A stretch of DNA of 64,000 nucleotides from contig NW_027266330.1 of the NCBI RefSeq assembly GCF_022045235.1, positions 22,196,001-22,260,000 of the forward strand, read 5' to 3'. The notes beneath the pieces are model-generated. The model searched no databases. It saw only the letters and a program-made list of their open reading frames with translations, and was not told the DNA's origin. This DNA is from Haliotis cracherodii (Eukaryota). The translations under genes were made by a program, and so were the position numbers. Numbering within the stretch: position 1 is the first letter of the stretch; each line of letters opens with the position of its first letter. Shown in pieces: positions 4,830 to 49,399 of the stretch.

Positions 4830-5120
4830 CCGACACCAACACACAGCCTGGTTGCTGTCATCTTCGTGTGTACAGAGGAGCTCTGTGGGGCGATGTTTGA
4901 CTGTCAGGTGGAATATTTCCTTCTGTCTGACTGCATCCTTCTGGAGACTTGTGTCTGTGAGGTTGACCTCCCTCTAACATGTAGAGCATGATATCACCCC
5001 GCCAGCTACAGATGTCACACACGTCTCACACACAGCGTGTAGACAGGGCAGTAAGTAGGGGACTGGGCCTTTCAGGGTAAACTGCTGCTGACAGACAGAA
5101 CACTTCGGGAAACTGTCCAT
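4830..5120 (-). pseudogene. TRIM-like RING finger plus start of B-box, disrupted
   Basis: Acceptor tcttcag then ATG at 5120: MDSFPKCSVCQQQFTLKGPVPYLLPCLHAVCETCV...ISCSTC (C3HC4 RING). In-frame TAG at 4976-4974; the frame continues REVNLTD...LLCTHEDDSNQAVCWC (B-box start), then similarity ends. Confidence 0.8.
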
Positions 5121-5437
5121 TCTGAAGACAGAAAACTTGAATGAGTTGCCACTCGGATCCATATTGCACTTGCGCCAACATGAAATGGGCGCCCAAAGCA
5201 TAGAAAGCAAGCCTTTGAAGGTTAAGCTCTACACTGCACATCACTTACAGTGAACAAAGCATTCGGATGTAGAAAAGCGCCATGTGTTAGACCGTTATAA
5301 CCCAAACTGGAAATATACTCTCCCAGTCGATTTCAATCCTGTTTTCTACACATCGTTTGCCATAACAATATAATAATAACTACAGCACTGTAATATTTAA
5401 TCTATAGTTGTACATGTCGTTATTGCAAGTACTTTTC

Positions 5438-5645: not shown

Positions 5646-6429
5646 AAATACTTTTCTATAAAATTTAGACATTGCGGTGATGCGGTCGTAAAATCAGAAT
5701 CGATTATTTCCAGTTTATGGTATAATGTACCATACCTCAAATATCAAATTTTGTGTGTCAAATTCCTGATATTATACCAGACAAATCAACACGTACACTT
5801 TAAATAATTAAGTTTTTATTATCTCTAAGTCCACATCAAAGATGTCAAAAACAGTGTCCTCAACACAATGTACGGTTGCGTTAGCCTCGGTGGTTAAATA
5901 GAAAACATTTTTTATGTACCCCGGTTAAACACCTGTTTCTATCAACCAACTCATACCTGCGCACAGGTATACCGGCTCAAAGCTGATCAGTCCCTATTTT
6001 AATTTCGAGGGTAGGGTACCAACGATCTGTCTACAACAACGCAGAGGCGGTACGCAAACAATGAGAGATCCCTCGCCATACATATAGCGTGGGGCATTTT
6101 TTTCACACGATCACGATATGAAAGAGCGTTCTCAAACGTCATGGGGGGAGAATCAATAGTTATCCCCAACATTGATAGATCCCTCGCCATACATAAAATA
6201 TACATTCACCTATAGCATATATAGCTATAGCTAAAGCGGCAGTATTTTCAAACGTGCCTACACGATGACAATCAAAGAAGCGATCTGAAATGTCATGGAA
6301 GAGAATTAATAGATGATTCCCACCTACATGTTGTCAATAATTGCCCAGTGTCAGCTGGTGCATATAAGCACACGACACGCTTCTATGCAGCGCAACATGA
6401 CAGATCGTTATCTATGTACAAGATAACAC

Positions 6430-7193
6430 TGTAACCAGGAGTTGCACACCCGGTTATAATTATCTATAAATACGTAAATTAAATGCAAGTATATTGATGT
6501 ACATGAATTATATATTACTAAGAAATTGTTAACTTCACTATGAGATGAAATGACTCACGTTGTATACCTATATGTACGAGGAGCGCAGGTGGCGGCCAAT
6601 TATATTTAATTAAATGGTTTTCCATAAAGAATGACAGGGTACACAGTACAGGGATCTCAGAGTCATGTAAAGAGTTAAGGTTGTTACGAGTCAGCCAAGA
6701 TGATTAAGAGGTATTAGTGGGTAGCATTAAACTATACGAATTGTACAAGGGAGGGAACCAGTTTTACTCTTGTAATTGGAAGCTAGATCATATATTAAAG
6801 ACTTAATAGATATGGTAAACCTGAATTCGAAGGTACGAGGTCAGAACCTCGGATAAGTCACAAAGAAGCTGGGTACTACTCAATCTTCATAACAGACTCA
6901 CGTGTTGGTCAAACCTCGTGACGTCATAGTAATTTATCATTAGAAAAGTGTAAGGATAAAATGGGGTGGAAAATCATGATTCAGGAGAACGGTTTGCGGG
7001 ACGCAAGTAGCTAGGTCAGAGGTCACTGCGCTCCTAAGTAATTCAGATTGCTGCCAGTACGTTTGTGCGGTATCTGTTTTACATTCTCCAAACCTGTCTT
7101 AAATAAAACCTATCGCATCTTGAAAACAAGTCGTTTTGTTCCTGCTGTGGTGCCTCCTGATTGCGAAGATCAAGAAAAAGGATCCAGGTTACA
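6430..7193 (+). repeat. 5' LTR
   Basis: TG...CA termini with 6-bp inverted ends; AATAAA near 7102; near-identical to 11236-11999 (two substitutions seen by eye). Confidence 0.95.
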
Positions 7194-7222
7194 AGCTAGA
7201 CAGATCACGAGCCGAAATTTTA

Positions 7223-7240
7223 TGGTGCCGAGACCAGGAT
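7223..7240 (+). promoter_or_regulatory. Primer binding site, tRNA-Phe-like
   Basis: TGGTGCCGAGACCAGGAT resembles the complement of the tRNA-Phe 3' end (TGGTGCCGAAACCCGGGAT). Confidence 0.7.
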
Positions 7241-7304
7241 CTTTGAAAACAAATCTCCAGCCAGGAGCACCCCAGGAACTAAGAATATAATTAGGAAATC
7301 TCTC

Positions 7305-7313
7305 GAGGTAAGT
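7305..7313 (+). promoter_or_regulatory. Putative major splice donor for env mRNA
   Basis: Consensus GAG|GTAAGT in the leader; matching acceptor TTACAG at 8747-8752 directly before ATG 8753. Confidence 0.6.
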
Positions 7314-7611
7314 TTTGCCCTAAATGACTCAATTTGGTCTGCTAGTATATAGTGTGTAGATTTTAGTTACAAAGAAATTAACTAACAAAGAGCGAAGTTA
7401 AGGTAATATATAGATATCAGTAAAATTGAAAAAGAAGGTAATTGATGGAAGTAGAATGAACCCCGGATCCAAGGACCCCAGATCTAAATTAATTAGCGTT
7501 GGAAGGTTTGCGGCTATTGTAGGTAGAATATGCCCGTTTAGCGCGGCGCTAATACAGCCTATTCAGAAGTTAAGCAGAATATGGGAGAAAGAACGAAATA
7601 CAGTTTGCTAA

Positions 7612-8466
7612 AAGTTTGCTAAAAGGGCTAAGAAATGCGAGTTTAAAGTAGGTGATGCAGTATACTACTATGACCCAACCACCTTGTTGGGAGTGTCAGC
7701 AAAACTAACCTCAAAATGGAAACCATACTACAGGATAGTCGAACAGATTTCACCAGTGAATTTTAGGATAAGACACCAGATGACAGGGAAGACAAAATTA
7801 GTACACGCAGAAAATATAAGGGAGGCACATCCCGAAAATACTTGGGATGAGGAAAGGGAACAGTACCAACCGATACTGAATAAGGTTAAGGTAGGGAAGG
7901 CTAGGAAGGAATTACCGGTAAAACTACGAACACAACCCATTAGGAGCGCAAGGTTAAATGTACCTAACACCGGAGGTAGCGGGGACCATGGGAAGGGGGG
8001 AACAGAGCCGCAAGGTTACAGCTCGGGGGAAGAGAGTATGGATACTGACCCCGAGGCAGATTACGACCAACCGGCAGGTGCAAACGATGCACTTGTACGA
8101 GGTCAAGGACCTCTTGACCCGAACGAGGCTGACGCTGAGGAAACAAGGGCCATAAATAATGACGGACTTAGTCTAGACAGTGACAGTTCGTACGACACAG
8201 AAGACGAGTTACCGCTTGTGCATTGGTCAGCCGTTTCCCCTACTGAGAAGACTATAATCGTGGATAGTCCAATGTCATGTAGGGAAGGTCTGAAAAGGAG
8301 GGTGGTCTTATCCCCTCAGGTAAGCGAACAGGAAAAAAGGGCCAGAATGGAGCAGAATTATTCAGACAGTGAAACCGAAATAGAGTTCGACGATTCGGAG
8401 GACGTTTCAGAAACGGAGGACTCTGGACTAACCAGTAAAGTGATGAGACTGATAGGCCTATGGTAA
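7612..8466 (+). pseudogene. pol remnant: integrase C-terminal (GPY/F-SH3-like) module plus long acidic tail
   Basis: KFAKRAKKCEFKVGDAVYYYDP...KLTSKWKPYYRIVEQISPVNFRI...VHAENI is typical of gypsy integrase C-termini; upstream pol is missing. Confidence 0.85.
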
Positions 8467-8752
8467 AGGTCCCAGATGGCAAACTCACGGCTAAATTCAG
8501 TAAGTTGAATGGTCGGAGTAGGTACCTGATTTACTTGAACGCAAGTAATCACGGTTCAGGGCGAAGTCAGGAACGTACTGTCACGCCAAGACAAGTAAAA
8601 CTACTGGTTATGTCTCTGCATACAAGTATAGTATGGCGGGATTAAGGGGGAACTATATATGTATCAGTCTATATAAAATGAATGACAGATGTGCTTGCAT
8701 ATATATATGACGTAATGAATGAATACAAACTTGTTTAAATTGTATGTTACAG

Positions 8753-10912
8753 ATGGTTCTAGGGTATCTCTCAGTGTTAAGCTTTATAAGGATAATTGTA
8801 TTAATGCAGTCAGTTCAACCAGGGAAAGCCTTAGCGGGAGTAAAATTTGTACATTTGAACGATGTGTACGCTTCTTATAGTACCTGGCTAATATCCTTCA
8901 CAGTGGATCTTCGACCCTATGACCGACAACTGAATAAGATTAACGACAATATTCATAGTTTTCGGAATACGGTAAATGCATTAAAAATACCGACGAGCAA
9001 ATACGAGGACGTGACTCAATACATACATAACAGCATTCGGGCCTTACTACAAAAAGAGAGCCAACAGATATTGGACAAATATAACAAGTTTAGAGTTTTG
9101 TATGGAAAACTACAAACTGTTACACGGACGCAAGGCGAACGAAAAAGACAGAAGAGAGCGCTACTGAATGTAGGCGGATTCCTGTCCCAACTATTCGGTA
9201 CAGCAAGTCAGGACGAGATGGATAGAGTTAGGCAGAACATAAATTCCTTAAGAAATAGCCAGGAAAAGGTTATTCATGTATTAGAACGCAGCCTGACTAT
9301 ATTAAACGTTACGAATACAGACATTCAGGTAAACCGAGCAAGTATAAATAGGCTGGGAAATCTTACGGTTACTATGGCTACCAAAACTTATGATTTATAC
9401 GACAAAATTAGTCTGGGAATGAAGCCAGTAATATCCTATACGGAAACCGTAGGTCAAATTCACGCCATGTTTCATTTGTTAAACAATGCAATTGACTCTC
9501 TGGGCGCGACTTTACAAGATATGTTTAATCAAGTGATAAGATGTATACAAGGACAGATATCTAGGACATTGATCCCTGAACATGCCCTACGTAAGGCTTT
9601 GTATACCCTGAAACGGAGGTGACCACCTACGCTAAGACTACCTTACGTGGTGAGCAAGGCTACCTTAAAATTGTATTATCAAAACTTCCAGACTACGCTT
9701 TTACCTGATCGAAATTCTTTCCATGTAATAGTGGCGATACCACTGCTACAAATTTCAGCGTACTTTGAATTATACAAAATAGTAATGGTACCTACTCCAA
9801 ATCTAGTCGGAAATACAACTTACACCTTCCAAACCGAGACTGACTTTTTGGCGATATCACCTGATAAAGGAAAATACACGCTATTAGACAAAGCTGAAGT
9901 TTCATCCTGTGCAAAACGGGATATAGCGTATTGTCCCCTGATTGCGGCTACTTATGTTACCACGATGGTTCCAGTGTGTATAACCTCGCTGTTTTTACAA
10001 AAATCAGATAAAACAAAGGAAAATTGTGAAATCAAAATTAAACCTCCGTCAGACACTCCTATTATTAAATCTTTAGCGAAAGGCAAATGGTTGGTATATA
10101 CTAAGGAAAGATTAGATATTGAATTAGCTTGTCTTCCTCCAAACTCCGATCTACCCACTACTATTTCAGTAGAGGCAGGGGCAAGTGTGATATCTATACC
10201 CATCCGATGCGCTGCACACTCGACTCATTTTAGCTTACCAGTTTATTTGAGGTCTGAGTCGCAATATAAAATTAGACCTAGTTTCCATAAGGAACTAAGT
10301 CTGGAAATGTATACAACGCTGTCGTCAAAATCCACTGCTAAATTAGTAACGACCACTAAGGGACCTACACAGTTTAAGATTCCACCGATAGAACCAGTTG
10401 ATAACAGTGATGAATTACTGGATGAACTGGATAGTGCAGACGAAGATATCGATTTTAATAATGGTGTTCAGTCTAATCCATCAAGTACCTTAACCATTTC
10501 GTATGCCGTTACCGGCGTATGTGTAGTGCTTCTAGTTATACTTATACTAATTATTATATATTCAAGGAGTAAGTGTAGAAGTAGGGAAATTGCTAGCAGA
10601 CAAAGTGATCATGAACGGGTAGAACTGAGAGAGAGAAACCCTAGAACCCACCGAACAGCTCAGGCAGAATTGATTCCTATGACCGAAACAACCACCACCA
10701 CACGATCCCAAGAAGTTTCGCCTAGACCAGCTCCTCGACTAGCAGGTCAGAAGAGAAAACATTCACCGTTTTATCGGGAGAAGATAAGCGAAGAACGAAC
10801 ATCCCGCGATGGAAACTCTGATGAGGAGACCATGCATCTTACATCGGCACCCCTTGATGCACGCAGACAAAACCCAAATAAAGGAACAGGTTCATTCCGA
10901 TTGGTGCAGTAA
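8753..10912 (+). CDS. env: Env-like class I fusion glycoprotein (baculovirus F/errantivirus env-like) with one in-frame TGA at 9620-9622
   Basis: Signal-like N-terminus; furin site RKRQKR then fusion-peptide-like ALLNVGGFLSQLFGTA; heptad region; Cys-rich ectodomain; TM YAVTGVCVVLLVILILIIIY. ORFs 8744-9622 and 9647-10912 share a frame (LKRR*PPTLRLP). Confidence 0.85.
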
Positions 10913-11221
10913 CAACTACCAACTAAATGGCGGGAATTTCAGGGAATGGCGTGTTGCAAGTGGAGAAAGGCCTGTAACTAGAGGCTACGGTGTGGTTAAT
11001 AATTGTGCAGCCAAAAGTGAATGTGTGGCTGGATTATTCGAGGATGAAGATAAAAGAAGGGATAGTGTATTCTAGTGTGAATAGGCCGAGAAATCCCTAA
11101 GAGACTATTCATCAATGCAGACCAAGAACTGTAAACTATTAAGTACCAAAAGAGACAAGTTGTGCTAATGGACTATGAGTATATGCAAGAAAATGTAATT
11201 GTAAATACATTTTCTTACCCT

Positions 11222-11235
11222 AAGAAAGGGAGGAT
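11222..11235 (+). promoter_or_regulatory. Polypurine tract
   Basis: AAGAAAGGGAGGAT abutting the 3' LTR. Confidence 0.9.
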
Positions 11236-11999
11236 TGTAACCAGGAGTTGCACACCCGGTTATAATTATCTATAAATACGTAAATTAAATGCAAGTATAT
11301 TGATGTACATGAATTATATATTACTAAGAAATTGTTAACTTCACTATGAGATGAAATGACTCACGTTGTATACCTATATGTACGAGGAGCGCAGGTGGCG
11401 GCCAATTATATTTAATTAAATGGTTTTCCATAAAGAATGACAGGGTACACAGTACAGGGATCTCAGAGTCATGTAAAGAGTTAAGGTTGTTACGAGTCAG
11501 CCAAGATGATTAAGAGGTATTAGTGGGTAGCATTAAACTATACGAATTGTACAAGGGAGGGAACCAGTTCTACTCTTGTAATTGGAAGCTAGATCATATA
11601 TTAAAGACTTAATAGATATGGTAAACCTGAATTCGAAGGTACGAGGTCAGAACCTCGGATAAGTCACAAAGAAGCTGGGTACTACTCAATCTTCATAACA
11701 GACTCACGTGTTGGTCAAACCTCGTGACGTCATAGTAATTTATCATTAGAAAAGTGTAAGGATAAAATGGGGTGGAAAATCATGATTCAGGAGAACGGTT
11801 TGCGGGACGCAAGTAGCTAGGTCAGAGGTCACTGCGCTCCTAAGTAATTCAGATTGCTGCCAGTACGTTTGTGCGGTATCTGTTTTACATTCTCCAAACC
11901 TGTCTTAAATAAAACCTATCGCATCTTGAAAACAAGTCGTTGTGTTCCTGCTGTGGTGCCTCCTGATTGCGAAGATCAAGAAAAAGGATCCAGGTTACA
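11236..11999 (+). repeat. 3' LTR
   Basis: Direct repeat of 6430-7193. Confidence 0.95.
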
Positions 12000-12076
12000 A
12001 CACTGTGGAAGTGGGTCACGGTGGAGTTGCAAGTTCGATCGGTGGACTGGTAAGTCCGTTCTCGTTGTAAAACAAG

Positions 12077-12236
12077 TGAGTGAGTGAGTGAGTGAGTATG
12101 GTTTTACGGCGCTTTAAGCAATATTCCAGCAAAATTACGGCGAGGGACACCAAAAATGATCTTTACACACTGTGCCCATGTCGGGTCTGTGGCGACACGA
12201 GCTAACGCCTTAACCACAAGGCAACCCGACCGACCC
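12077..12236 (-). mobile_element. SINE family 3 (short tRNA-derived)
   Basis: tRNA-like head GGGTCGGTCGGGTTGCCTTGTGGTTAAGGCG on -, (ACTC)n tail; related copies at 31214 and 53607. Confidence 0.75.
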
Positions 12237-13159
12237 TTGTAAAACGAAAGTAGAAATGTGATGTTGTCACATAATAATAATAATATCCAGGTTCTACAGT
12301 GTGTACCACATTTGGCGTTCCGATAGTATTGTGACATATACCTGCAAGTATTGACCCTGATTATTAAACAGTTGCCTGTGTCGCAGTGCGAGATAAAAAG
12401 CGGAAACAACACACCTACCTGAACAGATGACTTTCTTCACTGTGGCATAAAGGTCACTTCCGGTGATGACGCGAAAGTGCTTCCTTTCTTCAAGTGTGTT
12501 GGAACTGATACATGTTAACAATGTTATTGCTTTTATGCATACTTTTGACACAGACCACCAGGACAGTCTAAAAGCAAGGCCTAAAACAGTTAAAATAAAA
12601 CAGACAAAAAAGCGGGTAACACTAAAAACGGATTGCCGAATATTAAAATGAATTGTGCGTGTCTGGGCAAATGTATCACTCACTCATTACTAAAACTATC
12701 TGACCACTGATTAAATACAAGACCAACCTCTTTTCATCGTTAAACCACACCCACTGCATAGTTTACCTCTGTTTGCACACATGAACCTTTAAAATCATTT
12801 TGACACCCAGCTCATCGTCATGTACATGCAAATACCACGTGTGTGTTCGCTCAGAGGTTCAAGGTTGACAAATCCGAGGGTCATCCGTTTTCAGATTGCA
12901 TACAGCACGAATCGAAAAGGATTGTGATATCCCTGACGGTTATTTAACACCGGTCGTTATCAGCAGTTTTTCAATTATCGGTATGAATTAATGTAGGCCT
13001 GTGAAGTATCCATCTAACATTACTGTACAGGCCACAATCTGACATGCACTGGCTGGTACGTCGCATGAGAAGTCCACGTCATATCTGGCACGTACAGACA
13101 GGTTATATAATTTGAATAGTCAGGTGTGGCAATAGACATGAACCATCCTTCACAATTGA

Positions 13160-14708: not shown

Positions 14709-16263
14709 TACTACTCAAAATTTGATAGGATCGTAGATATTTTTCTTAATAAAAATACAAAATAACTGCATAACTGGCAATATTGTGTTCAAGTGAAATC
14801 AAAAACGTCTCCAACACACGTGCACGTGCATTTCATGCCATGGGAAATGCGTTTCACATCACAGTTCATGCTTTTGCTACCATTGCACGATTTCCAATCA
14901 GGCAACGGTGTCTGATTCATTCTGAAACTGTAAACTCAATTGAGTGTTTACACTACGTTTATCTACGCAATGCCCCCCTCAACGTGTAAGGCGTCGCCTG
15001 ACGACAGAACAACTGGGCAGATGTATTGGAATGCTTGATGCTGGCTATTCACAACGTGACGTTGCCAATGCACTAAACGTCAGCCAGAGCGTTGTAAGCA
15101 GGGCCTGGTCCCGACAGCAAAATTTTGGTACAGCAGCACACCGACATGGGGGTGGTCGTCAGAGGTCGACAACCCAACGCCAAGATCATTTTGTGGCTCT
15201 TCAGGCACGACGTCATCCCTTCTGGACAGCAACCAGCCTACGTAACGACCTCCTGAACGCCTCGGGGGTGAATGTGTCCACTCAGACGATACGGAATTGT
15301 CTTCACAATGCAGGTCTCTACTCGAGAAGGGCATGTGTCCGAATCCCCCTGACTGTTCGACACCGGCGGGAGCGATTGAAATGGGCTGAAGATCATGTCA
15401 CTTTGACACGGAACGATTGGGTTCCAGTTCTGTTCACCGATGAGTCCAGGTATTGTTTGGACTTTACAGACAGGAGGCAGCGGGTGTGGCGACGACAACG
15501 TGAACGTTTCCATGATGCCAACATCAGTGAACATGACCGTTATGGTGGTGGTTCCATCATGGTCTGGGGTGGAATCAACAGAGATGGAAGGACAGATCTT
15601 CATGTCCTGGAGAGAGGAACAATGACGGGGGTGAGGTACCGGGATGAGATCCTCGATGTGTACGTCAGACCCTACGCTGGTGCTGTTGGCCTGATGGATG
15701 ATAACGCCCGTCCTCATCGCGCCAGGGTGGTTGAGCAGTACCTTGAGCAGGAGACAATTGTCCGCATGGATTGGCCAGCGCGCTCGCCGGACTTGAACCC
15801 GATTGAGCATGTCTGGAACATGCTGCAGGTTGCCCTTTCACGCCGTAGAGCACAACCCACGACTTTGGCAGAGCTCGGACATGCCCTCGTGGAAGAGTGG
15901 AACAACCTTCCCATTGGGAACATCCGGGTGCTTATTGACAGCATATCTCGACGTTGTCAGGCCGTCATTGATGCAAGGGGAGGTCATACTCGATATTGAC
16001 ACTTCGTCGACTAAGTGTAATGATGGACTATCCCTCATAACTGTGTAATTCTTTCTCTTGTTTGCTGTTAACATTTTTTAATGAAATGCCTTTTGGTGTT
16101 TGCAGATTTCAAACATTCCATATTGATACAAGTTCATGCCGTTCATGAATTTTCATTCATAACATGATTAAACACGTTTCTGAGTCAGAGTCATGTCTTT
16201 TGTTATGTTTGTGGAAACTTACACACATATCACCTAGTGATCCTTATCAAATTTTGAGTAGTA
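14709..16263 (+). mobile_element. Full-length Tc1 (DD34E) DNA transposon
   Basis: TIRs TACTACTCAAAATTTGATA(A)GGATC at both ends, TA TSD, transposase inside. Confidence 0.95.
14970..15999 (+). pseudogene. Tc1 transposase, probably inactivated
   Basis: HTH region, FTDESR, MDDNARPH and SPDLNPIE with 34 residues between D and E. Likely ATG at 14970 is out of frame by one extra C in a C6 run; YAGAVG-LMDDN looks a few residues short. Confidence 0.9.
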
Positions 16264-18640: not shown

Positions 18641-21090
18641 ATGAACACATTAGAAGTTTGCGGACATTGTGGAGAAAAATCCAAGGGTGTTCATCCATCA
18701 TGCACAGGGTATGTTTTCATTTAGATACAGTGAAACATCCTCAAATTACTGCCTCGTGTTTGGTTCGGGTGACAATTACTAAACGATTGTCATAAGAGGC
18801 AATCACTCAAATCGTGATAGNNNNNNNNNNNNNNNNNNNNNNNNNNNNNNNNNNNNNNNNNNNNNNNNNNNNNNNNNNNNNNNNNNNNNNNNNNNNNNNN
18901 NNNNNNNNNNNNNNNNNNNNNNNNNNNNNNNNNNNNNNNNNNNNNNNNNGTTAGTAACGCAACTTTTAACAGTATTCCGGTTATATCACGGTTATTATGC
19001 CCCCTGCAGTTACAGTTGAAATGTTCTTAGAAATAACAGTACCCCATTCAAAAGCACCAAACTAGCGACATGAATAATGATTTGTATATAGTGGGATCCA
19101 TTGCAATACAACCAAGTGTATAACGACACAAACCATATTATGCTGTCCTAATTAATTCAAAATGTGATGATTCATCACGTGAAACAAGTAATGTTGTGAT
19201 AGTCCCTAATTACTTTTATTGATGCTAACTAATGGTTTTAGAAGTTGACGGTTCTGTGTGGTTCTTTGCTTATAAACGAAATGATGTCAGTATGCCAAGA
19301 AAGTATGTGGATATTAACACGTTTGAAGAGACGTTTTTTACTACATGTCCTGGAAAGAATATTCAAGTGAACAAACAAATATATGAATAAACACCTCAGA
19401 AGCTCGACTGGGTCCTGATACTGACAGTGAGATGAAGTGAAATGAGGTTTAACGTCGCATTCATGACTGTTTCACTAAAATAGCGACATGCAACTTTGTG
19501 TGTGGTGGCTTGTGTTAGTACTACATTTATGCCAGATTTATAGAGCTAGCCCACTGAGATACCAACCTGCAGACTAACACTGACACCAACTTTTACACAA
19601 TATACTTATACCGAAATAATCAGTCCGTCCTTTATCTCCATGAGTGAGTGAGTGAGTCAGTATGGTTTTACGCCGCTTTTAACAATATTCCAGCAATATC
19701 TCTCGGGTTGGGAAATATTTATTCCTGCATCACAGCTAAGGGTTATGGGGCTGTCAGTGTGTACATTGATGCCGCAAGCACTGAATGAACTGGTGTCATC
19801 CTTATGTGACATTTGAAATTTACATATAAGCTAACATACCAAAATGAAAATCAAAACCTAAGTAATCATGTATAAGCAGAGAGTAAAATATGTTGCGAGA
19901 GATCTGGTCACGGCTTTTCTGTCTGTTTTAGGAACATTGAAAGATGCCATGCAGCCGTTAAGTTGTTCCAAGACACAATGGCTACCAGCCCGAACATACA
20001 ATTTATGGGAATTCACGTCCACTATCTGTATGGCATCGACAAGAAATTAACTGATCAAGACAAACTCGAGAAAAGGGAGAAACGGAATTTGAAGCTAGTC
20101 GAACTCACAAAGCATATCTCTGCGCTCAGAAATTCTAACGGTGGCTACTTACTTGTTCACATTGTAGGCTTAATTCCAAATGAAAATTACCTTGGTGCTT
20201 TTGACGAGTTTGCAGATGACACCCTGTACAAAATGATAGAAGATGGAAGAATGTTTGAAAGCGTGTATAAAAAAGCAAGGCTTAGCGAAGCTGAAGGATG
20301 CAATCAGTTCCATGATTTCATCAGTATTTTTGTTACAAAAGGCACAGAATTTTCAACAGCTGATTTTAAAACTAAAATATCTTTAGACTGGGGAATAATA
20401 ACCCCTTTACCTATCACAATGAAGAGGTTTGTTGTCGAACAAAACAATTGCAATCACATTCATCGTGAAGAAATTGATTTCAAATTCAATGGTGACTTTG
20501 AAACGATTTCACAATTGCAAGAGAAGCGTGATTTACAACTAAAGGGCTTCATGGAAAATAAACTTAAAGTTGACTGGAAGTTGTTGTCGGGCTATGAAAA
20601 AGCCCGAACAGTTTGGGATGATTTTCGACTGAGGGAGTATGTAAGTGCCTTCACCAAGAACAAGCGGGGTGGATCCTTCCTGCTAGGAATTGGGGAAAAA
20701 GAAAAAGGCAATGATGTGTACAAGTCAAAAGATCTCATTGTCCAAGGAGTGCCACTTGAGGACGAAAATGAGTTCAGAGGCTACCTCGAAGAACTTGTCC
20801 ATGACGAGAGCCTGGTGTGTGACTTTAAGGGGCACACTGATGTTAATTGGGACATAATGGAAGTAAAATGCACCCTTGTACCCCCTAGATATGTGCAATC
20901 AAGTACTACACGTGGTCCGCACACCACGCAGTACTACATTGTCGAGGTACTGGTTCGCCCAATCAATGGAGTAGCATTTTATGACAAAAAGGGGCCTGTA
21001 TCATGCCGAATCATCAACAACATTTGTACCCCTGTTGATGTGAAAACATGGTTCGAAAAGATTGCCATGCCCACACAATCATCGCTTTGA
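18641..21090 (+). CDS. Gene A: stand-alone Schlafen/AlbA_2-like nuclease-domain protein; exons 18641-18708 and 19932-21090
   Basis: ISALRNSNGGYLLV (Schlafen N-lobe xALLNSGGG), EKRDLQLKGF (ExxxxEFK equivalent), EYVSAFTKNKRGGSFLLGIGE (AlbA_2 YVSAFANxxGGxLxIGV). The phase-2 junction joins MNTLEVCGHCGE...CTG|NIERC in frame; exon 1 is conserved in the second copy. Confidence 0.85.
18821..18949. other. Assembly gap
   Basis: Run of N inside the gene A intron. Confidence 1.
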
Positions 21091-24171: not shown

Positions 24172-27100
24172 ATGTCACTTCTTGCAGGCGAAAAGCTTAA
24201 ACACATTGGTGAAAAACGTAAAGATGAAGAGGGGGAAATTGGACAAGTCAAGTAGGAACTATAGTATAGTATCTCTCTTATCTTAATGGTGACTACTTTA
24301 ATTACAGTAGAATCTGTGAGTGTTTGAGTTGGCATTTATCATCATCATCATCATCATCATCGTCGTCGTCGTCGTCATCACCACCACCACCACCACCATC
24401 ATTCGCCTCCTCCTCCTTATCAAAACATCAACATGTTATAAAGCAGATTTAATCGGTTTTCTTCTTCTTCAGGACAAGAAAATTTGAACCCCAAAACTAT
24501 GTATTGGCCCCATATGAGCTCAAGGTACGTTGTGTCCGCTTTTATATTCCAATCATAAAACCATTCACACCATAATAGTGAGCTTAGTCATATCAGTCGT
24601 TTTACATATTGAATAATGTTGTTGTGACCAAGGTTTAGTGGGACTGAAGGTGTGAATGTTTATTTTGTTGTTTACAACAATGTTGTATGTTATTTATATA
24701 CAGTGGCTGATACATACAACAAATGCTTTAATCATGTTACAAAAACATACACACATACACGTACATGCACACATATATTCGCGGAGAATGATTAATTTGA
24801 CTTTTTTCAGACTACCATCTGCCAAGAACAAAAGCACAAATTCGATATTCAAACAAAGGACTTTTTTCTACCATCACTACAACAGATGGGACACAGTATC
24901 AAAGACATACAAGAGTTCTACTGCCCTGGTGGTACGTTCTTTTTCTTCCATTTTCTACTACAAAATAATATTAGATCCGTAAAGATCCCGGGTAGAATAG
25001 ATTTTCAGCTACCCATGCTTGCCATAAATGCAATATTTTTCAAAAAAATTGTTTTAAGGGAAAAAAACCCAGTTGCGCTTCATGTGCGCTGCCCGGTTAC
25101 ACTTCATGGCAGGAATCAATACATCACTTAAAAGGATATGACGTGAACGGTGACGTCATCCATGTTAGCTTTCTGATTAACGCGATTCTCAGCTTGGATA
25201 GCCGCCCGCTCCAGACGTGTTTTGCCCTGTCTCATTTTAGCAACTTAAAACCACCTCCTCCCAAGCCTCCTCCTCTCTACTGATAAAAGGCAACTATGCT
25301 TGTCGTTAGAGGCGACTTACGGGATCGGCTGGTCAGGCTTCCTGACTTGGTTGATGCATGTCATCGTATCCCAATTGCGTGAATCGATGCTCATGATGTC
25401 AATCACTGGGTCGTCTGGTCAAGACTCGATTATTTACAGACCGCTGTCATATAGCTGGGATACTGCTGAGTGTGGAGTTAAACAACAAAAAAAACAAACA
25501 AATCTCATCATATTATTTTTGGGTTCTAAAGTACACGCAATCTCAAGATTGCAACATTTACGGTAAGAAATCAATATATATATATATCTCCAGATGTTTT
25601 ACATTATTATGCCATTCTGGCATGTCCCTCGACACAGACAAATATATAGAGCTACTGTATTTGATATAAATGCCACACACTGAGCCATAGTTACGCATGC
25701 GAATGCTGTTGTAAACTAGTTATATCATTATCATTAATGATTTATACTTACAGGTAAACTAAATGTTGTGCCTCAAAACCTACCCCTGAAACTCAAAAGG
25801 ATTACTGAGAAACTTCAACATTTGCTTCAAAAAGGAAAATATTCTATCATGTCACAAAACAGTTTACTGAAAGAAACTGCTGGCCCAACACTTCATCAAG
25901 GAACAGATGGCTTCGTCTTTATTGCACAAACATTGTGTTTTCCCTTAAATATTGCGTGCAGTGAATTACCATCTGATATTCACTGCGATATTGTACTGAT
26001 GTTACCTTCTCAACCAGCATTTGTACTGACTTTAGTGGAAAAGGACACACCAGAAGCAAGGAAATACAACGTCAGTGTTGCTAGAGGGGTGACAACCTCC
26101 CTCAATAAGTTCATTGATGATGACTTTTCAGCAGTGTTTGGCGTCGTGTGCATGTCTCATCTAGACTCCAGAGACACATTCCAGTCCCATTTAAAGACAC
26201 TTGTAGAATCATGTAGCAAGTTTGTTACGCTTGAATCCCTTTATATGCCAAAAAGGAAATATTTTAAACTCATCACTTCCTTTTGGGCTGCGGTTGCAAA
26301 GGTAGAGCCTGGAGATCAGTTTCCCGACACTAACGTGATTAATTTCTTAACAAGAGAACAGTGCACAGCGTTGGTAGAAAATATGAATTGCAACTATGTT
26401 TTTGTGTCAACACTTCCAAAAAGTGGTGGGACTACTCTGATGTTGGAAGTGGCCAGAAGACTTCAGAATTTTCTACCAACGCATCTCATTGTCAAATCAG
26501 AGAACGACATTTCCAAATACAGGTTAGCAGATCATTTCTCTTTTCACAGTAATGTTAAAACGAATGTACTTTTTATAGTCATTATCATGTGTGTCTGGGT
26601 GTGAGTGTGTGGGAGGTGTGTGTACGTGCGATGCGTTCGTGCGCACGTGCGTGATCGTATGTGTGTGTCTCGTTGTATGTCTAAGTGTTCGCCTCTCTCT
26701 CTCAACTTACATCTTACTTGACTTTAGGAAATGCAACTCACGTGGAATTATCCAGTCTTATGAATAATAATGTCATTTTGTTACTTTTAAAAATCAATTC
26801 TTCCCCATGACTAACAACAAACTAACATGTTTTCATGTACCTTGACAACTGAATCTTGTCACAACGAAAGAGTATTTGTGTGAGGAATGTGTATTGAACA
26901 AAGTGACTTTCCACGTAATCACCATCAAATTAGCATCAAATGTGAACACACTTATTTAGTTTCAGAGGAGATTACCAATTGTGTGAAGAACAAACAGTTG
27001 ATGAACTGACTTATTAATAGCTGTGTGTATTATATTTGCAAGTGTTTTGACATTTCATTAAACGTCAAGACAACCCTTTTCAACAAAAAAGAAAGTTTGG

Positions 27101-30100
27101 TGAGAACTATTGGGTTTTAATACTGCTCCTCATATAGTAGATTTGTTTCAGAAATCTATGTGAGAGGGTTTCAACGACCTTGCAGCCTGAATGTCCTGCA
27201 AATATGACACTGGAATGGAACAGCAGCATACGTAGATGCGAGACAGCAGTTGTCGCAGAAACAATTCTGCCTTTCTACGAGGGCCAAGACCAAACCATGA
27301 AAATCATATGGACCTTCTGTTCAGGTATATTTAAAAAAAATATTTCGCAGAATTAAGAGCTGTATCAGGCTGATTGAGAAGTCTTTGTAGAAAACAAAAC
27401 AAATGTTCCAAAAATTAACCATGTTCTTCAGATTAACAAAAATACAAACTTGAAACAAAGGGATCATTTTGCATAAAATTATGCCTCATCACATTGTGTC
27501 ATATCTTAAACGATTGACTGATAGCTAATTTCACAACTGTGGCATGTTAAAGTTTAAGGAAAGCAGTAGCACCTGCATTTGCCATGCACTGTGATTGCAA
27601 ACTTCAAATAGAAAATGTGTGCTCAAGCATTGCCTATATAGATATATCACATCTGGAATATTTATGATGGTCTCTTTCTACATACCACAGAGTTCTTCAG
27701 ACCACGAATTATGGATGACATACTTGCCCTCTTTGAATCACATCGGCATGTACTTCTTGTCGGATCAGCAGGAGAAGGAAAGACAGTCATAGGCATTCTT
27801 CTTCTGGAACACTACAGATCAAAAGGAATACGAGTAGTACATGCGACCAGTGCCGTGGAAATGAAAAGCGCTATTCAAAACTCTGAAGAAACGTTTATCC
27901 TTTGTGATGACGTGTTTGGGAGGTTCAGGTGCACATTTACGTTAACACCCGATTTGGAAAACATATTCAGTCGGCTTCAAACTAAGACAAACATTAAAAC
28001 GTTATTCACTAGCAGGTGTGATGTTTACGCAGACGCACTTCCGCGTTTAGGGAAGCTTCAGTCACATTTTGCAGGTTCCAGAGAAGTGAATCTTACCGAG
28101 AAAACTCTGACAAGTGAGAAGACCAAAATGTTAGACAGATACTTAGAAGCCACAAACAGGCATATTTCTGATGCTGAAAAACACAGCATAATCTGGAAGC
28201 GAAATATTCATGGATTTGCACACTCATGTCAGTTGTTCGTCACTTTAGGAAAGGAAAACACAAACGCCGAACAGTTCTTTGACAATCCGTTGTATTTTGC
28301 TGGAGAAAGAATTCAACATCTTTTGAAGAATTCGATCATGAAGTGCCTCCTCTATCTCTTAACAGCATTCAAAGGCACACTTGATTTGAAAGATCCTACC
28401 ATTGATTCAAATGAAAAAAGACACATGGTAATGAGTTATGTCAGTTACAGAGAAACATCTATGTCTGAGGTTCTTACCGCTGCCGCAGAGGAACCATACT
28501 TGTTTACAACAGAAGGTTGTGTAAAGTTTTCTCATCCATCCTTTCTTGAAGTAACGTCAAACATCATAGCAGAATCTGACACTGAATTCATCATAAAGTA
28601 TGGACCCCTTGAACTATTTGAAAAGGCAAGAAATATGAGAGAACAAAAGTACAGCATCAGTTTGTCTGAAGACAGTCATTTCATCAAACTAGCAGAACGG
28701 TTTTCACAGGAAATAAAACTTGGTTTATTTGAAAGCTGCTGCCCACATCAACTGCTACAAAGTCAAAGCTTTGTTGATCAAGTTATGTGTCAACTTCCCA
28801 CATCCACAGATGACTTAGCTGTCGAGAAACTATTGTACTGGGCATCTAGCAATGGTTCAGATGTGATGATGAAAGCGTTGTTGCAGAAGTACCCAATGAC
28901 ACGGGAAATGTATCACCATGCAGTTGTGGGCTGCAGCAGATGGGGCAATCATTCTGCACTGGAGTTCATTGTTACCAGTTTAAAACTGACTTCTCGGGAC
29001 ATTGGGGAAATCACTGAAGAAGGGTTGCCATGCCTAATTATAGCAGCCAATCAGAATCACATTGAAGTGTGTAAAGTTCTGATCAAACACCAAGTGGATG
29101 TATACACCACAGATCCACGCATGGGGGCAAATGCACTTCATTGGGCTGCTGCAGCTGGTCACCTTGAGGTTGTGAATCTGCTGTCAAACCACATATCAAT
29201 TGAACGTGAAAGCAATGGGGGAGTTACGCCTTTGTTTGTGGCTGCAGAAAATGGGCACATGAAAGTATTTAAACTTTTACTTGAGAAGGGTGCTGCTATG
29301 AATACACAAATTAAAAGCAGAATTGTGTCATTAACAAATCCAAGAAATGAAGGCCGTGCATTAGTTAAGCAGCTTAATGTATCAGATGAAGGTTTTACTC
29401 CTCTTCATGTGGCAAGTTATGAAGGACAATATGACATTGTAAACCTCCTGATAACTGAAGGAGCTGACGTCAACTTGAAGGCTGAATTGGGACCTCCTGT
29501 AGCTTTTGCTGCAAAAGCAAATGAATCGTGTATCTTTCGTCTGTTCCTAAACGATGTGAGAGTAGATTTCAGTGACGTTATCACTGCAGCATATGAATAT
29601 GGCCGTACTGAAATGCTGAAAGAGGTTGTTCTCCATAAACGGTCACAAGCTAGCGCTATTGCAATAGCAACCTTGCAGGGAGATCTGGAGACTGTGAAGC
29701 ATTTGCTTGAGGAAAATGAAAAAAGTTTAACTTCAAATGTCGAAGGATATACACTTCTCCATCTAGCAGCAACTTTAAGCCATGAAGACATTGTGGACGA
29801 GCTCCTACAAAGAAGGATCGAAGTGAACAAATCTTCTGAAGGTGGATTCACAGCTTTACATGGGGCATCTATTACTGGCGCATCTTCAGTCGTTGAAAAG
29901 CTCATCAATAGGGGAGCAGATGTTGCCCGACTTGCCAATGGTTTCAGTCCTCTTCACTTTGCATCAATGTATGGACAGACAAATGTAGCAAGGGTTTTGA
30001 TACAACATCAAGCAGATATCCAGATGAAAGGTTATCATCAGTGGAGCCCACTTCATGTGGCAAGTATCCACAACCAACCCGACATTGTGCTGCTTTTACT

Positions 30101-30698
30101 GGAACACAATGCTGACATAGAAGCTTTGTCAGAAGACCTGTCAACACCCCTTGTATTTGCTACATATTTGAACAATATGAACATAGCTGATATATTGTTA
30201 GCTCATGGGGCTGACTTACATCCAAGAGGCATGTCATATCACCCTCTTCTAGGTATTGCTCTCCTGGGGCATCCTGAGGCTGCGAACAATTTATTTCAGA
30301 GAGGTGCAAGGGTAGATCATGTAAGTGCAGTTGGAGTAAGCGCCTTACATGGAGCTGCCTACATGGGGGCAATGGATGTCCTAAAATGTCTTCTTGAGAA
30401 TCATGCAAATCCAAACCTGAAACTGTTCGAAGGGATATCACCAAAGGAGAAATCTATCATAACAAAGCATGTGGAGAAATGGTGCAAAAGCACACCTGGA
30501 AAGGATATCAATTTGAGAAGATATGATGGTGGATCTGCGCTCCATGTGGCTGTCGATATGGGTTACACCGACATGGTACGACTTTTGTTAAAATCAGACG
30601 CTGATCGCAATCTCAGGAACTTGAAAAATGAAACTGCTGTGGATATTGCGAGAGAGAAGGAGTTCAGTGACATTGTGAGACTCTTAGAATCGTCCTAG
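24172..30698 (+). CDS. Gene B: Schlafen-linker/pseudo-helicase + STAND-like NTPase + ankyrin repeats (~1400 aa); exons 24172-24251, 24473-24524, 24811-24931, 25754-26522, 27152-27324, 27691-30698
   Basis: All introns GT-AG with consistent phases (2,0,1,2,1); total 4203 nt, open. HCDIVLMLPSQPAFVLTL...ARKY resembles the Schlafen linker; NFLTREQ...VFVSTLPKSGGTTLM resembles the Schlafen helicase Walker A region; LLVGSAGEGKT and FILCDDVFG are Walker A/B of an nSTAND3-like NTPase; many GxTPLHxA ankyrin repeats. Same exon structure in the second copy. Confidence 0.88.
24338..24420. repeat. Compound trinucleotide microsatellite (CAT)n(CGT)n(CAC)n in intron 1 of gene B
   Basis: Visible directly. Confidence 0.9.
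24976..25500 (+). mobile_element. SINE family 2 copy split by an unrelated ~250 bp insertion, in intron 3 of gene B
   Basis: Head at 24976-25026 and remainder at about 25281-25500; absent from the second gene copy. Confidence 0.75.
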
Positions 30699-36941: not shown

Positions 36942-39900
36942 CTAGGACGATTCTAAGAGTCTCACAATGTCACTGAACTCCTTCTCTCTCGCAATATCCA
37001 CAGCAGTTTCATTGTTCAAGTTCCTGAGATTGCGATCAGCGTCTGAATTCAACAAAAGCCGCACCATGTCGGTGTAACCCATATCGACAGCCACATGGAG
37101 CGCAGATCCACCATCATATCTTCTCAAATTGATATCCTTCCCAGGTGTGCTTTTGCACCATTTCTCCACATGCTTCGTTATGATAGATTTCTGCTTTGGT
37201 GATATCCCTTCAAACAGTTTCAGGTTTGGATTTGCATGATTCTCAAGAAGACATTTTAGGACATCCATTGCCCCCATGTAGGCAGCTCCATGTAAGGCGC
37301 TTACTCCAACTGCACTTACATGATTTACCCTTGCACCTCTCTGAAATAAATTGTTCGCAGCCTCAGGATGCCCCAGGAGAGCAACACCTAGAAGAGGGTG
37401 ATATGACATGCCTCTTGGATGTAAGTCAGCTCCATGAGCTAACAATATATCTACTATCTTCATATTGTTCAGATATGAAGCAAATAGAAGGGGTGTTGAG
37501 AGATCTTCTGATAAAGCTTCTACGTTGGCATTGTGTTTCAGTAAAAGCAGCACAATGTCGGGTTGGTTGTGGATACTTGCCACATGAAGTGGGCTCCACT
37601 GATGATAACCTTTCATCTTGATATCTGCTTGATGTTGTATCAAAACCCTTGCTACATTTGCCTGTCCATACATTGATGCAAAGTGAAGAGGACTGAAACC
37701 ATTCGCAAGCTGGTCAACATCTGCCCCCCTACTGATGAGCTTTTCAACGACTGAAGAGGCGCCAGTAATAGATGACCCATGTAAGGCTGTGAATCCGCCT
37801 TCAGAAGATTTGTTCACTTCGATCCTTCTTTGTAGGAGCTCGTCCACAATGTCTTCATGGTTTAAAATTGCTGCTAGATGGAGAAGTGTATATCCTTCGA
37901 CATTTGAGGTTAAACTTTTCTCATTGTCCTCAAGCAATTGCTTCACAGTTTCCAGCTCTCCCTGCAATGTTGCTATTATAATAGCATTAGTTTCTGACCG
38001 TTTATGGAGAACAACCTCTTTCAGCATTTCAGTACGGCCATATTCATATGCTGCAGTGATAACGTCACTGAAATCTACTCTCACATCATTTAGGAACAGC
38101 TGAAAGATACACAATTCATTTGCTTTTGCAGCAAAAGCTACAGGAGGTCCCAATTCAGCCTTCAAGTTGACGTCAGCTCCTTCAGTTATCAGAAGGTTTA
38201 CAATGTCATAATTTCCTTCATAACTTGCCACATGAAGAGGAGTAAAACCTTCATCTGATACATTAAGCTGCTTAACCAATGCACGACCTTCGTTTCTGGG
38301 ATTTGTTAATGACACAATTCTGCTTTTAATTTGTTTATTCATAGCAGCACCCTTCTCAAGCAAAAGTTTAAACACTTTCATGTGCCCATTTTCTGCAGCC
38401 ACAAACAAAGGCGTAACTCCCCCATTGCTTTCACGTTCAATTGATATGTGGTTTGACAGCAGATTCACAACTGCAAGGTGACCAGCTGCAGCAGCCCAAT
38501 GAAGTGCATTTGCCCCCATGCGTGGATCTGGGGTGTATACATCCACTTGGTGTTTGATCAGAACTTTACACACTTCAATGTGATTCTGATTGGCTGCTAT
38601 AATTAGGCATGGCAACCCTTCTTCAGTGATTTCCCCAATGTCCCGTGAAGTCAGTTTCAAACTGGTAACAATGAACTCCAGTGCAGAATGATTGCCCCAT
38701 CTGCTGCAGCCCACAACTGCATGGTGATACATTTCCCGTGTCATTGGGTACTTCTGCAACAACGCTTTCATCATCACATCTGAACCATTGCTAGATGCCC
38801 AGTACAATAGTTTCTCGACAGCTAAGTCATCTGTGGATGTTGGGAGTCGACACATAACTTGATCAACAAAGCTTTGAATTCGTAGCAGTTGATGTGGGCA
38901 GCAGCTTTCAAATAAACCAAGTTTTATTTCCTGTGAAAACCGTTCTGCTAGTATAATGAAATGACTGTCTTCAGAAATACTGATGCTGTATTTTTCTTCT
39001 CTCATATTTCTTGCCTTTTCAAATAGTTCAAGGGGTCCATACTTTATGATGAACTCAGTGTCAGATGCTGCTATGATGTTTGATGATACTTCAAGAAAGG
39101 ATGGATGAGAAAACTTTACACAACCTTCTGTTGTAAACAGGTATGGATCCTCTGCAGCAGCGGTGAAAACCTCAGACATAGATGTTTCCCTCAAGCTGAA
39201 TTGACTCATTACCATCCGCCGTTTTTCATTTGAATCACTGGAAGGATCTTTCAAATCAAGTGTGCCTTTGAATGCTGTTAAGAGATAGAGGAGGCACTTC
39301 ATGGTCGAATTCTTCAAAAGATGTTGAATACTTTCTCCAGCAAAAAACAACGGATTGTCAAAGAACTGTTCGGCGTTTGTGTTCTCCTTTCCTAAAGTGA
39401 CGAACAACTGACATGAGTGTGCAAATCCATGAATATTTCGCTTCCAGATTATGCTGTGTTTTTCTTCATCAGAAATATGCCTGTTTGTGGCTTCTAAGTA
39501 TCTGTCTAACATTTTAGTCTTCTCACTTGTCACAGTTTTCTCGGTAAGATTCACTTCCCTGGAACCTGCAAAATGTGACTGAAGCTTCCCTAAACGCAAG
39601 AGTGCGTCTGCGTAAACATCACATCTGCTAGTGAATAACGTTTTAATGTTTGTCTTAGTTTGGAGCCGACTGAATATGTTTTCCAAATCGGGTGTTAACG
39701 TAAATGTGCACCTGAACCTCCCAAACACGTCATCACAAAGGATAAACGTTTCTTCAGAGTTTTGAATAGCGCTTTCCATCTCCACGGCACTGGTCGCATG
39801 TACTACTCGTATTCCTTTTGATCTGTAGTGTTCCAGAAGAAGAATGCCTATGACTGTCTTTCCTTCACCTGCTGATCCGAGAAGAAGTACATGGCGATGT

Positions 39901-47789: not shown

Positions 47790-49399
47790 TCAAAACGATG
47801 TTTGTGTGGGCATGGCAATCTTTTCGAACCATGTTTTCACATCAACAGGGGTACAAATGTTGTTGATGATTCGGCATGATACAGGGCCATGTTTGTCATA
47901 AAATGCTACTCCTTTGATTGGGCGAACCAGTACCTCGACAATGTAGTACTGCCTGGTTTGCGAACCATGTGTAGTACTTGATTGCACATATTCAGAGGGT
48001 ACAAGGGTGCATTTTACGTTCATTATGTCCAACTTACGATCAGTGTGCCCCTTAAAGTCACACACCAGGCTCTCGTCATGGACAAGTTCTTTGAGGTAGC
48101 CTCTGAACTCATTTTCGTCCTCAAGTGGCACTCCTTGTACAATGAGATCTTTTGACTTATACACACCATTGCTCTTATCTTTTTCCCCAATTCCTAGCAG
48201 GAAGGATCCACCCTGCTTGTTCTTGGTGAAGGCACTGACATACTCCCTCAGTCGAAAATCATCCCAAACTGTTCGGGCTTTGTTATAGCCCGATAATGAC
48301 TTCCAGTCAACTCCAAGTTTATTTTCAATGAAGCCCTTTAGTTGTAAATCACGTTTCTCTTGCAATTGTGAAATCGTTTCAAAGTCACCATTAAATTTGA
48401 AATCAATTTCTTCATGGTGAATGGGATTCCAATTGTTTTGTTCGACAACAAACCTTTTCATTGTGATAGGTAAAGGGTTTATAATTTCCCAGTCTAAAGA
48501 TATTTTAGTTTTAAAATCAGCTGTTGAAAATTCTGTGCCTTTTGTAACAAAAATACTGATGAAATCATGGAACTGATTGCATCCTTCAGCCTCGCAAAGC
48601 CTTGCTTTCTTATACACGCTTTCAAACATTCTTCCATCTTCTATCATTTTGTAAAGGGTGTCATCTGCAAACTCGTCAAAAGCACCAATGTAATTTTCAT
48701 TTTGAGTTAAGCCTACAATGTGAACAAGTAAGTAGCCACCATTAGAATTTCTTAGCGCTGAGATATGCCTTGTGAGCTCGAAAAGCTTCAAACTCCGTTT
48801 CTTCTTTTTCTCGATTTTTTCTCGATCAGTTAAGTTCCTGTCGATGCCATACAGATAGCGGACGTGAATACCCATAAATTGTATGGGTGTGTCAGGCCCG
48901 CTGACTTGGTTATTACATGTCATCGTGTCCCAAATTCGTGGATCGATGCTCATGATGTTAATCATTGGATTGTCTGGTCCAGATTCGATTATTTACAGAC
49001 CGCCGTTACATAGCTGGAATATTGCTGACTGTTGTGTTAAACAACAAACAAACAAAGCGCTACAACAAATTGGCCGGAATAATTACATCAATAGAATATC
49101 ACATCTGATGCCCATTAACTCACACAAAAGAAATACTGGGTGATAGTAAATATAGAATATTGCAACTGTGTCACGGCAGCCTGCAAATATTCGAGTTTAA
49201 ACCTGCCAACGACTTGCTCTTATGGCAATCATTGAGTATTGTCACCCATGCTACCCCGAACCACACAGCAGGCAGAAAGTTATGGAGGTTTCTATGTATC
49301 TAAAAGAAAACATACATACTCTGTGCAAGCTAAATGGATATCCTTTTCAGTGGATTCAAGTTTCTCTCCACAATGTCTGCATACTTCCAAAGTATTCAT
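47790..49399 (-). CDS. Gene A' (inverted paralog of A); exon 49399-49320 and main exon about 48885-47790; native acceptor replaced by a SINE, possibly a pseudogene
   Basis: Main ORF is open and colinear with A from IQFMGIHV to MPTQTSF*; exon 1 MNTLEVCRHCGE...HLACT with phase-2 GT donor; homology breaks at about 48886 where a family 2 SINE begins. Confidence 0.75.
48890..49036 (+). mobile_element. SINE family 2, 5'-truncated, at the intron/exon junction of A'
   Basis: GTCAGGCCCGCTGACTTGG...GCTGGAATATTGCTG...(AAAC)n. Confidence 0.85.

Follow-up and report, generated by a model that had tools for sequence, protein, structure and literature searches.

What kind of element remains when a young LTR retroelement is stripped of gag and most of pol but retains an env, a wreck of one insertion or a member of a lineage that moves with outside help, is the question raised by a locus in the 64,000-nucleotide stretch analyzed here (the window). 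A gypsy-type LTR retroelement occupied positions 6430-11999 on the plus strand, and the boundaries given in the initial annotation of this DNA were exact. The 5' LTR (6430-7193, +) and the 3' LTR (11236-11999, +), each 764 bp with ends TGTAAC...GTTACA, differed by 2 mismatches and no indels; this divergence of 0.26% (2/764) bore out the reported near-identity, supported a recent insertion and also bounds assembly error. The clean target-site duplication was likewise found, with the same four bases, ACAC, at 6426-6429 and 12000-12003. A primer-binding site (PBS) of the tRNA-His(GUG) type lay at 7223-7240 (+), with one mismatch to the tRNA end as given in a table of PMC13524379, and a polypurine tract of 13 purines lay at 11222-11234 (+), one base 5' of the 3' LTR. 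Both had been reported and both were present, although the PBS did not adjoin the LTR but followed a 29-nt spacer (7194-7222, +). TG...CA LTR ends, PBS, polypurine tract and short duplication are hallmarks of Ty3/gypsy elements (Metaviridae), and the proposed gypsy affinity and non-insect host, likely a mollusc, were supported. Rfam gave no match in the window, and a tRNA-Trp called by ARAGORN at 15778-15853 was set aside as likely false, lying inside a transposase ORF.

The 4042-bp interior consisted of a leader, an integrase tail and an env, confirming that gag-pol was missing. What was left of pol was the integrase C-terminal tail (7612-8466, +; Pfam Integrase_p58_C, PF22938, E 2.7e-07), which carried an acidic extension, lacked a start codon and catalytic core, and was 51-55% identical to the proteins P0151-P0153. 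When 54 related full Pol proteins were compared with the element, 53 matched it, every match falling within 7474-8370; no match was obtained for protease, reverse transcriptase (RT), RNase H or the integrase core. In P0188, the closest full Pol, the order is protease-RT-RNase H-integrase, which is deleted in the window copy; the C-terminus of P0188 matched the window tail, which lies last, before env. In the relatives L001, L003 and L004, pol was also followed by an env homologue. The leader matched no ORF of three related loci tested, and the tail compared with viral contigs gave 8 pattern matches and no relative. The LTRs, PBS, leader and polypurine tract were thus all kept while gag and enzymatic pol were gone, the profile of a non-autonomous LTR element. 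An F-type env downstream of pol places it with errantiviruses in the operational sense of PMC13524379; lacking intact ORFs for gag, pol and env, it counts as a defective derivative and not as an intact member.

The leader was joined to out-of-frame integrase scraps in a junction zone (7395-7623, +) that included an 11-nt tandem duplication (7602-7623, +). The integrase remnant was broken near 7551-7623, and the top profile segment in this zone was 7551-7589. A longer patchwork of scraps in 7420-7611 (a zinc-finger piece at 7509-7523, then 7527-7538 and 7551-7599) was rejected: its chain score beat all 150 controls with P0153, but was reached by 4 of 300 with P0151 and 116 of 300 with P0152, and, when a profile of 54 sequences was used, by 12 and 20 of 300. 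Among these scraps only 7551-7599 appears reasonably secure.

The env-like frame of about 720 codons in the initial annotation (8753-10912, +) proved to be an F-type env but not an open frame. Codon 290 (9620-9622, +) was a premature stop that split it into 289 codons from the ATG at 8753 and a further 429. Read with X at the stop, it matched Pfam Baculo_F (E 2.6e-23); it also matched the fusion protein of PDB 9w4c (E 3.3e-05) and, in Foldseek, the F proteins of CuniNPV (E 1.5e-23) and RSV (E 2.1e-11), so the proposed check against Baculo_F came out in favor of homology. A signal peptide, a furin site RQKR (9146-9157), a fusion peptide, a cysteine-rich region, a transmembrane helix at about 10493-10567 and a long tail were recognized. 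The stop lies upstream of this anchor, leaving a 289-residue anchorless product. Baculo_F, furin site and fusion peptide are shared with baculovirus F and paramyxovirus-type class I fusion proteins, but identity to these was 11-15%, with no sign of recent viral capture. A word-index search with the whole env returned nothing among 8000 candidates; when the C-terminal half was used in a full HMMER scan, 966 proteins were returned at E<=0.001, the best 31-34% identical, and none of 10 looked up bore a name.

Contigs of the runs X1, X6 and X14, the last RNA-like, were compared with the window; Logan contigs collapse variants, and their depth does not equal copy number. In each of the three runs, the contigs that covered the codon lacked the stop. 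It therefore appears private to the window copy or its immediate line, and programmed read-through was rejected on the same ground. A splice donor (7305-7313, +; GT at 7308-7309, a consensus match by eye) and an acceptor (8751-8752, +) directly 5' of the env ATG are predicted from sequence; no spliced joint was listed among the run contigs. Donor, intron sequence and acceptor were all retained, and a retro-copied spliced env mRNA was rejected as the origin of the window copy.

That an enveloped gypsy element outside insects would be a surprise was not supported: 46 mollusc errantivirus elements, all ENV_F, are already described (Chary and Hayashi, eLife 2026, PMC13524379). Like Tcro_errantivirus_1, Gmag_1 and Scin_1 of that study, the window element has an F-type env after integrase and a His-GUG PBS at some distance from the LTR, and the first 12 bases of its PBS are those of the Tridacna crocea errantivirus_1 PBS. 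The spacer was 0-21 nt in the 10 His-PBS mollusc elements of the supplement, against 29 nt here. Compared through the published table, those 10 have intact gag-pol-env and interiors of 7.6-8.4 kb, in contrast to 4.0 kb and a stopped env. Truncated elements were removed in that study, so a form of the window type would have been omitted.

Sequence from another animal, X6, bore directly on the age of the deletion. Record 16 of this run aligned to 7395-7650 with no gaps and 7 differing letters, and so spans both the 11-nt duplication and the point where the integrase core is missing. The junction is thus common to the window and a diverged contig; among the run contigs neither a second locus with its own flanks and target-site duplication nor a full-length helper was seen. 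An allele of the same insertion should differ as much as the two LTRs do from each other; the junction differed by 2.7% (7/256) versus 0.26% (2/764; P 0.0014), and with records 17 and 18 added the comparison was 21/1073 versus 2/764 (P 0.0006). A shared but more diverged junction indicates that the deleted form is most likely older than the window insertion. The two window LTRs also had differences in common when set against the majority LTR contigs (0.7% for X1; 1.2% plus 7 gap letters for X6), indicating a template that was already diverged by the time of the window insertion. The deleted form would most likely have retrotransposed in trans. We put at about 0.7 the probability of the following reading: a Ty3/gypsy element of errantivirus type has suffered an internal deletion, its F-type env is broken, and it likely belongs to a non-autonomous sublineage, probably mobilized by the Gag and Pol of helpers.

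The strongest alternative, though an unlikely one, is that an old full-length insertion lost gag-pol in place, that its LTRs were later gene-converted, and that the copies in X1 and X6 are alleles of that one insertion. Such conversion would leave the pattern observed, but it must have spanned all 764 bp, indels included; decay without conversion has P of about 0.001. Junction-zone depth in X1 was close to that of the flank (7.07 vs 6.31), which fits a single copy and decay in place, and record 7 of X1 extends about 209 letters past 12106, as would be expected of a filled allele; the run contigs listed included no empty-site joint. About two-thirds of the X1 tail depth belonged to another arrangement, which would fit full-length copies. 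In X6, the right-flank contig was 6% divergent against 2.7% for the junction, and the left flank was almost uncovered (depth 0-2.2), both of which argue against a shared locus. The depth of the X6 junction contig (54.8) matched that of the tail contigs (61.7 and 51.3) and exceeded that of the right-flank contig listed (21.2) by a factor of 2.6. Much of this junction depth could, however, come from a single homozygous locus.

The proposal of an env-only satellite complemented in trans survived in its first half, mobilization in trans, to which the diverged X6 junction points; the supply of an envelope was not supported, given that env stops short of the transmembrane helix here and is frameshifted in the dominant contigs of X6. 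Receptor interference, the other role proposed, likewise drew no positive support from these data. A broader version, which we consider improbable, is a two-part errantivirus in which gag-pol-less derivatives are kept since some express envelope for helper particles, the window copy being a dead member. It would be consistent with an X6 env contig depth about three times that of the tail (149-207 vs 51-62), stepping between 8467 and 8744, with the retained donor- and acceptor-like sites, and with X14, which covered LTR and env but neither 7417-8340 nor the left flank. However, the dominant X6 env contigs carried 4-nt insertions at 8905 (depth 169.6/169.6) and 9570 (154.5/206.7), frameshifts indicating that broken-env copies are abundant. 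Env depth in X1 (22-24) was about that of the tail (20-28); helpers in X1 thus probably bear an env of their own. The X14 pieces were 1-5% different from the window copy. Among the 40 of 346 rows listed, differences from the majority favored third codon positions in env (12/21, P 0.02) and in the integrase tail (6/10, P 0.08). The bias in env would suit an env donor; more generally it indicates divergence in coding lineages, hence recombination or conversion, rather than a deleted line simply drifting neutrally. It is equally doubtful that the family divides its labor, with nested gag-pol-less satellites, open members supplying F envelope to helper particles and the window copy as a freshly killed member; this would make it a two-part endogenous retrovirus of a mollusc. 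The contig depths do hint at shorter derivatives that also retain the env region.

Vertebrates have soluble restriction envs without a membrane anchor, and a secreted 289-residue product with signal peptide, F2 and fusion peptide could in the same way block entry of related elements or viruses; such host co-option is very improbable, since the stop was absent from the X1, X6 and X14 contigs and so is not fixed, the insertion is young, no transcript of the window copy was seen in the runs compared, and small RNAs of X20 lay on the strand opposite to the element. No RNA run was listed in the run search among those on record as carrying the element, and the frame was not the fixed, conserved and open one expected of a domesticated env, which would also be expressed from its locus: it was stopped, its stop was unshared and its insertion was young.

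In the reading we prefer, the deletion and its adjoining small lesions would have arisen in an ancestral element, whose LTR-driven RNA was copied in trans. Full-length helpers would have supplied Gag and Pol for packaging, reverse transcription and integration, and through this copying the LTRs would have become identical again; the window copy, or its immediate line, would have acquired the env stop. Most likely the env region was carried along because it lay outside the reach of the deletion or because a cis signal resides in it, and not for making envelope. Because its F-type env is cut by a premature stop, the window copy is likely a passenger and not a working envelope donor. EAV-HP is a pol-deleted precedent. 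In work on the non-autonomous Athila elements of Arabidopsis (PMC2410132), pol-less LTR elements with an env-like ORF are mobilized in trans and recombine with autonomous families, as may hold here; those elements keep gag, have ORFs under purifying selection and carry a plant-type env-like gene, whereas the window element has lost gag and has a stopped env. Defective D-type ERVK[2-1-LTR] elements of cattle are likewise copied in trans and may outnumber autonomous ones, according to PMC10924933; they belong to a vertebrate betaretrovirus-like clade in which mobilization was measured directly, while here we infer it.

On present evidence the element is neither a new kind of element nor a working envelope. 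F-type env on mollusc gypsy elements is already published; what is new is a deletion junction bridged in a diverged contig from another animal. Enveloped gypsy elements of molluscs have been recently active and are likely spawning helper-dependent derivatives, a layer omitted by design from surveys of intact elements. Should the env region be present in all derivatives, even those with a dead frame, a packaging or export signal may reside there, and the family would then be a natural deletion map of the cis signals in a non-insect errantivirus.

The boundaries of the gypsy-type errantivirus derivative were exact (6430-11999). Its two LTRs, 764 bp each (6430-7193 and 11236-11999), differed at 2 sites with no indels, a 4-bp TSD was present on both sides, the PBS began at 7223 and a 13-nt purine run lay upstream of the 3' LTR, confirming the near-identical LTRs, TSD, PBS and PPT reported in the initial annotation. 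The LTR-LTR divergence of 0.26% (95% interval 0.03-0.95%), used for dating as had been proposed, gave an insertion age of 0.13-1.3 million years if the rate is taken to be 1e-9 to 1e-8 per site per year, which may not hold for the host. Gene conversion between the LTRs could also make the insertion look young. No second copy of the element was found elsewhere within the 64-kb window.

A very high-copy SINE-like repeat (12067-12260), found at many further places in the window, adjoined the 3' LTR, and 1.2 kb from the 5' LTR lay a short frame (4974-5228, minus strand) whose cysteine pattern, judged by eye, resembled that of a RING finger. Two intronless nSTAND3 NTPase-ankyrin genes that were 96% alike formed an inverted pair at 27642-30698 (+) and 36942-40025 (-). 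A Schlafen/AlbA_2-like ORF and an ORF without a Pfam match were each duplicated in inverted orientation, in a nested arrangement (19876-21090 (+), 47790-48992 (-), 25741-26604 (+) and 40655-41485 (-)), and together with the STAND-ankyrin pair they made up an immune-like cluster; the nearest Atlas cluster of the Schlafen-like ORF was mostly Mollusca, the match being weak and below the recognition threshold. Two Tc1/mariner-type transposase ORFs (14944-15999 and 58652-59458) and two assembly gaps (18821-18949 and 40507-40637) were also present.

The first 12 bases of the PBS were identical to those listed in the supplement of PMC13524379 for Tridacna crocea errantivirus_1, where the PBS is typed as His-GUG and has one mismatch. 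This PBS type, along with the Mollusca-dominated cluster closest to the neighbouring Schlafen-like ORF, makes a mollusc the likely host. All 46 mollusc rows of that supplement were ENV_F, and 10 of them carried a His-GUG PBS with interiors of 7569-8444 bp (median 8031). The PBS was separated from the LTR end by 29 nt (7194-7222), compared with 0-21 nt in these 10 elements, whose LTR ends were BLAST-defined. The interior here was 4042 bp, so that approximately 4 kb is missing, as much as gag and the greater part of pol would occupy. The region 7612-8466 matched Integrase_p58_C (Pfam), with 51-55% identity to three proteins, and 53 of 54 related full Pol proteins (the best 54 of 115) matched the element, always inside 7474-8370. 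The best of these relatives (P0188) had the gypsy order protease-RT-RNase H-integrase, and an env homologue was located downstream of pol in three of six related loci. Just upstream of the integrase tail, a fragment of integrase lay out of frame (7551-7599) and 11 nt were duplicated in tandem (7602-7623); additional integrase scraps were suggested there, with mixed statistical support.

When read with an X at the break, 8753-10912 matched Baculo_F (E 2.6e-23) and PDB 9w4c (E 3.3e-05). In the encoded protein a hydrophobic peptide follows an RQKR furin site, and a signal peptide, a transmembrane helix and conserved cysteines are also present. A structure model built from 85 sequences (mean pLDDT 78.8) matched the folds of baculovirus F (E 1.5e-23) and RSV F (E 2.1e-11), showing that the proposed fusion-protein homology of env holds. 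Rank 9 of the fold search was A0A145VUZ2, an uncharacterized abalone herpesvirus protein with an F-like fold (E 9.7e-19, 11% identity). The roughly 720-codon frame described initially is thus an F-type env region, but broken by an in-frame stop at codon 290 (9620-9622), 300 codons upstream of the membrane anchor. In insect errantiviruses, env mRNA is spliced; donor-like (7308) and acceptor-like (8751) sites suggest that it may be here, and no 7308/8751 joint was found among the listed matches of run contigs and reads to 5800-12700.

Four of 23 sequencing runs (X1, X6, X14 and X20) were compared with 5800-12700, a comparison that rests on 40 of 346 differences and 24 of 2815 pieces listed; contigs collapse variants, and depth is not copy number. 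The possibility that the deletion was unique to this copy was made unlikely by a contig of X6, from another animal, which spanned 7395-7650 with no gaps and 7 differing letters, showing that the integrase-core loss and the 11-nt duplication are common to X6. Divergence between alleles of one insertion should not exceed that between its two LTRs (2/764), whereas the X6 junction differed at 7/256 (P 0.0014) and three X6 contigs at 21/1073 (P 0.0006). Among the contigs listed, interiors differed from the window by 1.29% in X1 (three contigs, omitting two approximately 11% divergent ones treated as an older subfamily) and 1.55% in X6 (six contigs), and LTR contigs by 0.7 and 1.2%, respectively, indicating that the template of the insertion already differed from the majority. 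The older X1 subfamily was about 89% identical over 10285-11099 (41/361 differences), and one contig skipped 10805-10983. The junction shared with X6 most likely existed in a common ancestor that predates the insertion. Its depth in X1 was about single-copy, and no second locus with it was found among the contig pieces listed.

The simplest reading of the shared junction would be that deleted RNA was retrotransposed in trans, and we consider such copying likely (probability about 0.7). The mobilization half of the trans-complemented env satellite proposed initially is thus supported, but the env is stopped. A bias of the differences towards third codon positions (env 12/21, tail 6/10, among the 40 of 346 listed) suggests an exchange of 3' parts with coding helpers, putative full-length elements supplying Gag and Pol; if this occurred during co-packaging, it also implies mobilization in trans.

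The codon-290 stop was private, being absent from the covering contigs of X1, X6 and X14, so the env product is not the reason for its retention in this copy. The dominant X6 env contigs carried 4-nt insertions at 8905 and 9570, which shift the frame. Env depth in X6 (149-207) was about three times that of the tail (51-62), climbing stepwise across 8467-8744 (51, 107, 147, 170), which suggests several abundant shorter derivatives without the integrase tail, their env region kept but dead; in X1, the two depths were about equal. X14, RNA by guess only, covered the LTR and env (from 8416) and left 7417-8340 and the left flank uncovered; its pieces differed by 1-5% from the window, indicating that another member was their source. 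Only 25 of 21.6 million X20 small-RNA reads were placed (9034-12036), with all depth on the minus strand, opposite to the element, and 11 beginning at 10688, which hints weakly at silencing by piRNAs or siRNAs. Retention of env is better explained by a passenger state or a cis signal than by a role as envelope donor; other members may have such a role.

According to PMC13524379, F-type env gypsy elements are established across animals, molluscs included, and truncated elements were excluded from that survey. Pol-less Athila elements keep env and are mobilized in trans (PMC2410132), and helper-dependent defective ERVs occur in cattle (PMC10924933). Our literature search, with subscription papers and Repbase mostly outside its scope, found no gag-pol-less, env-keeping subfamily of invertebrate errantivirus, and such a subfamily may tentatively be new. 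The element itself is real and young; it derives from a known class of mollusc errantiviruses but is defective, with its envelope gene broken.
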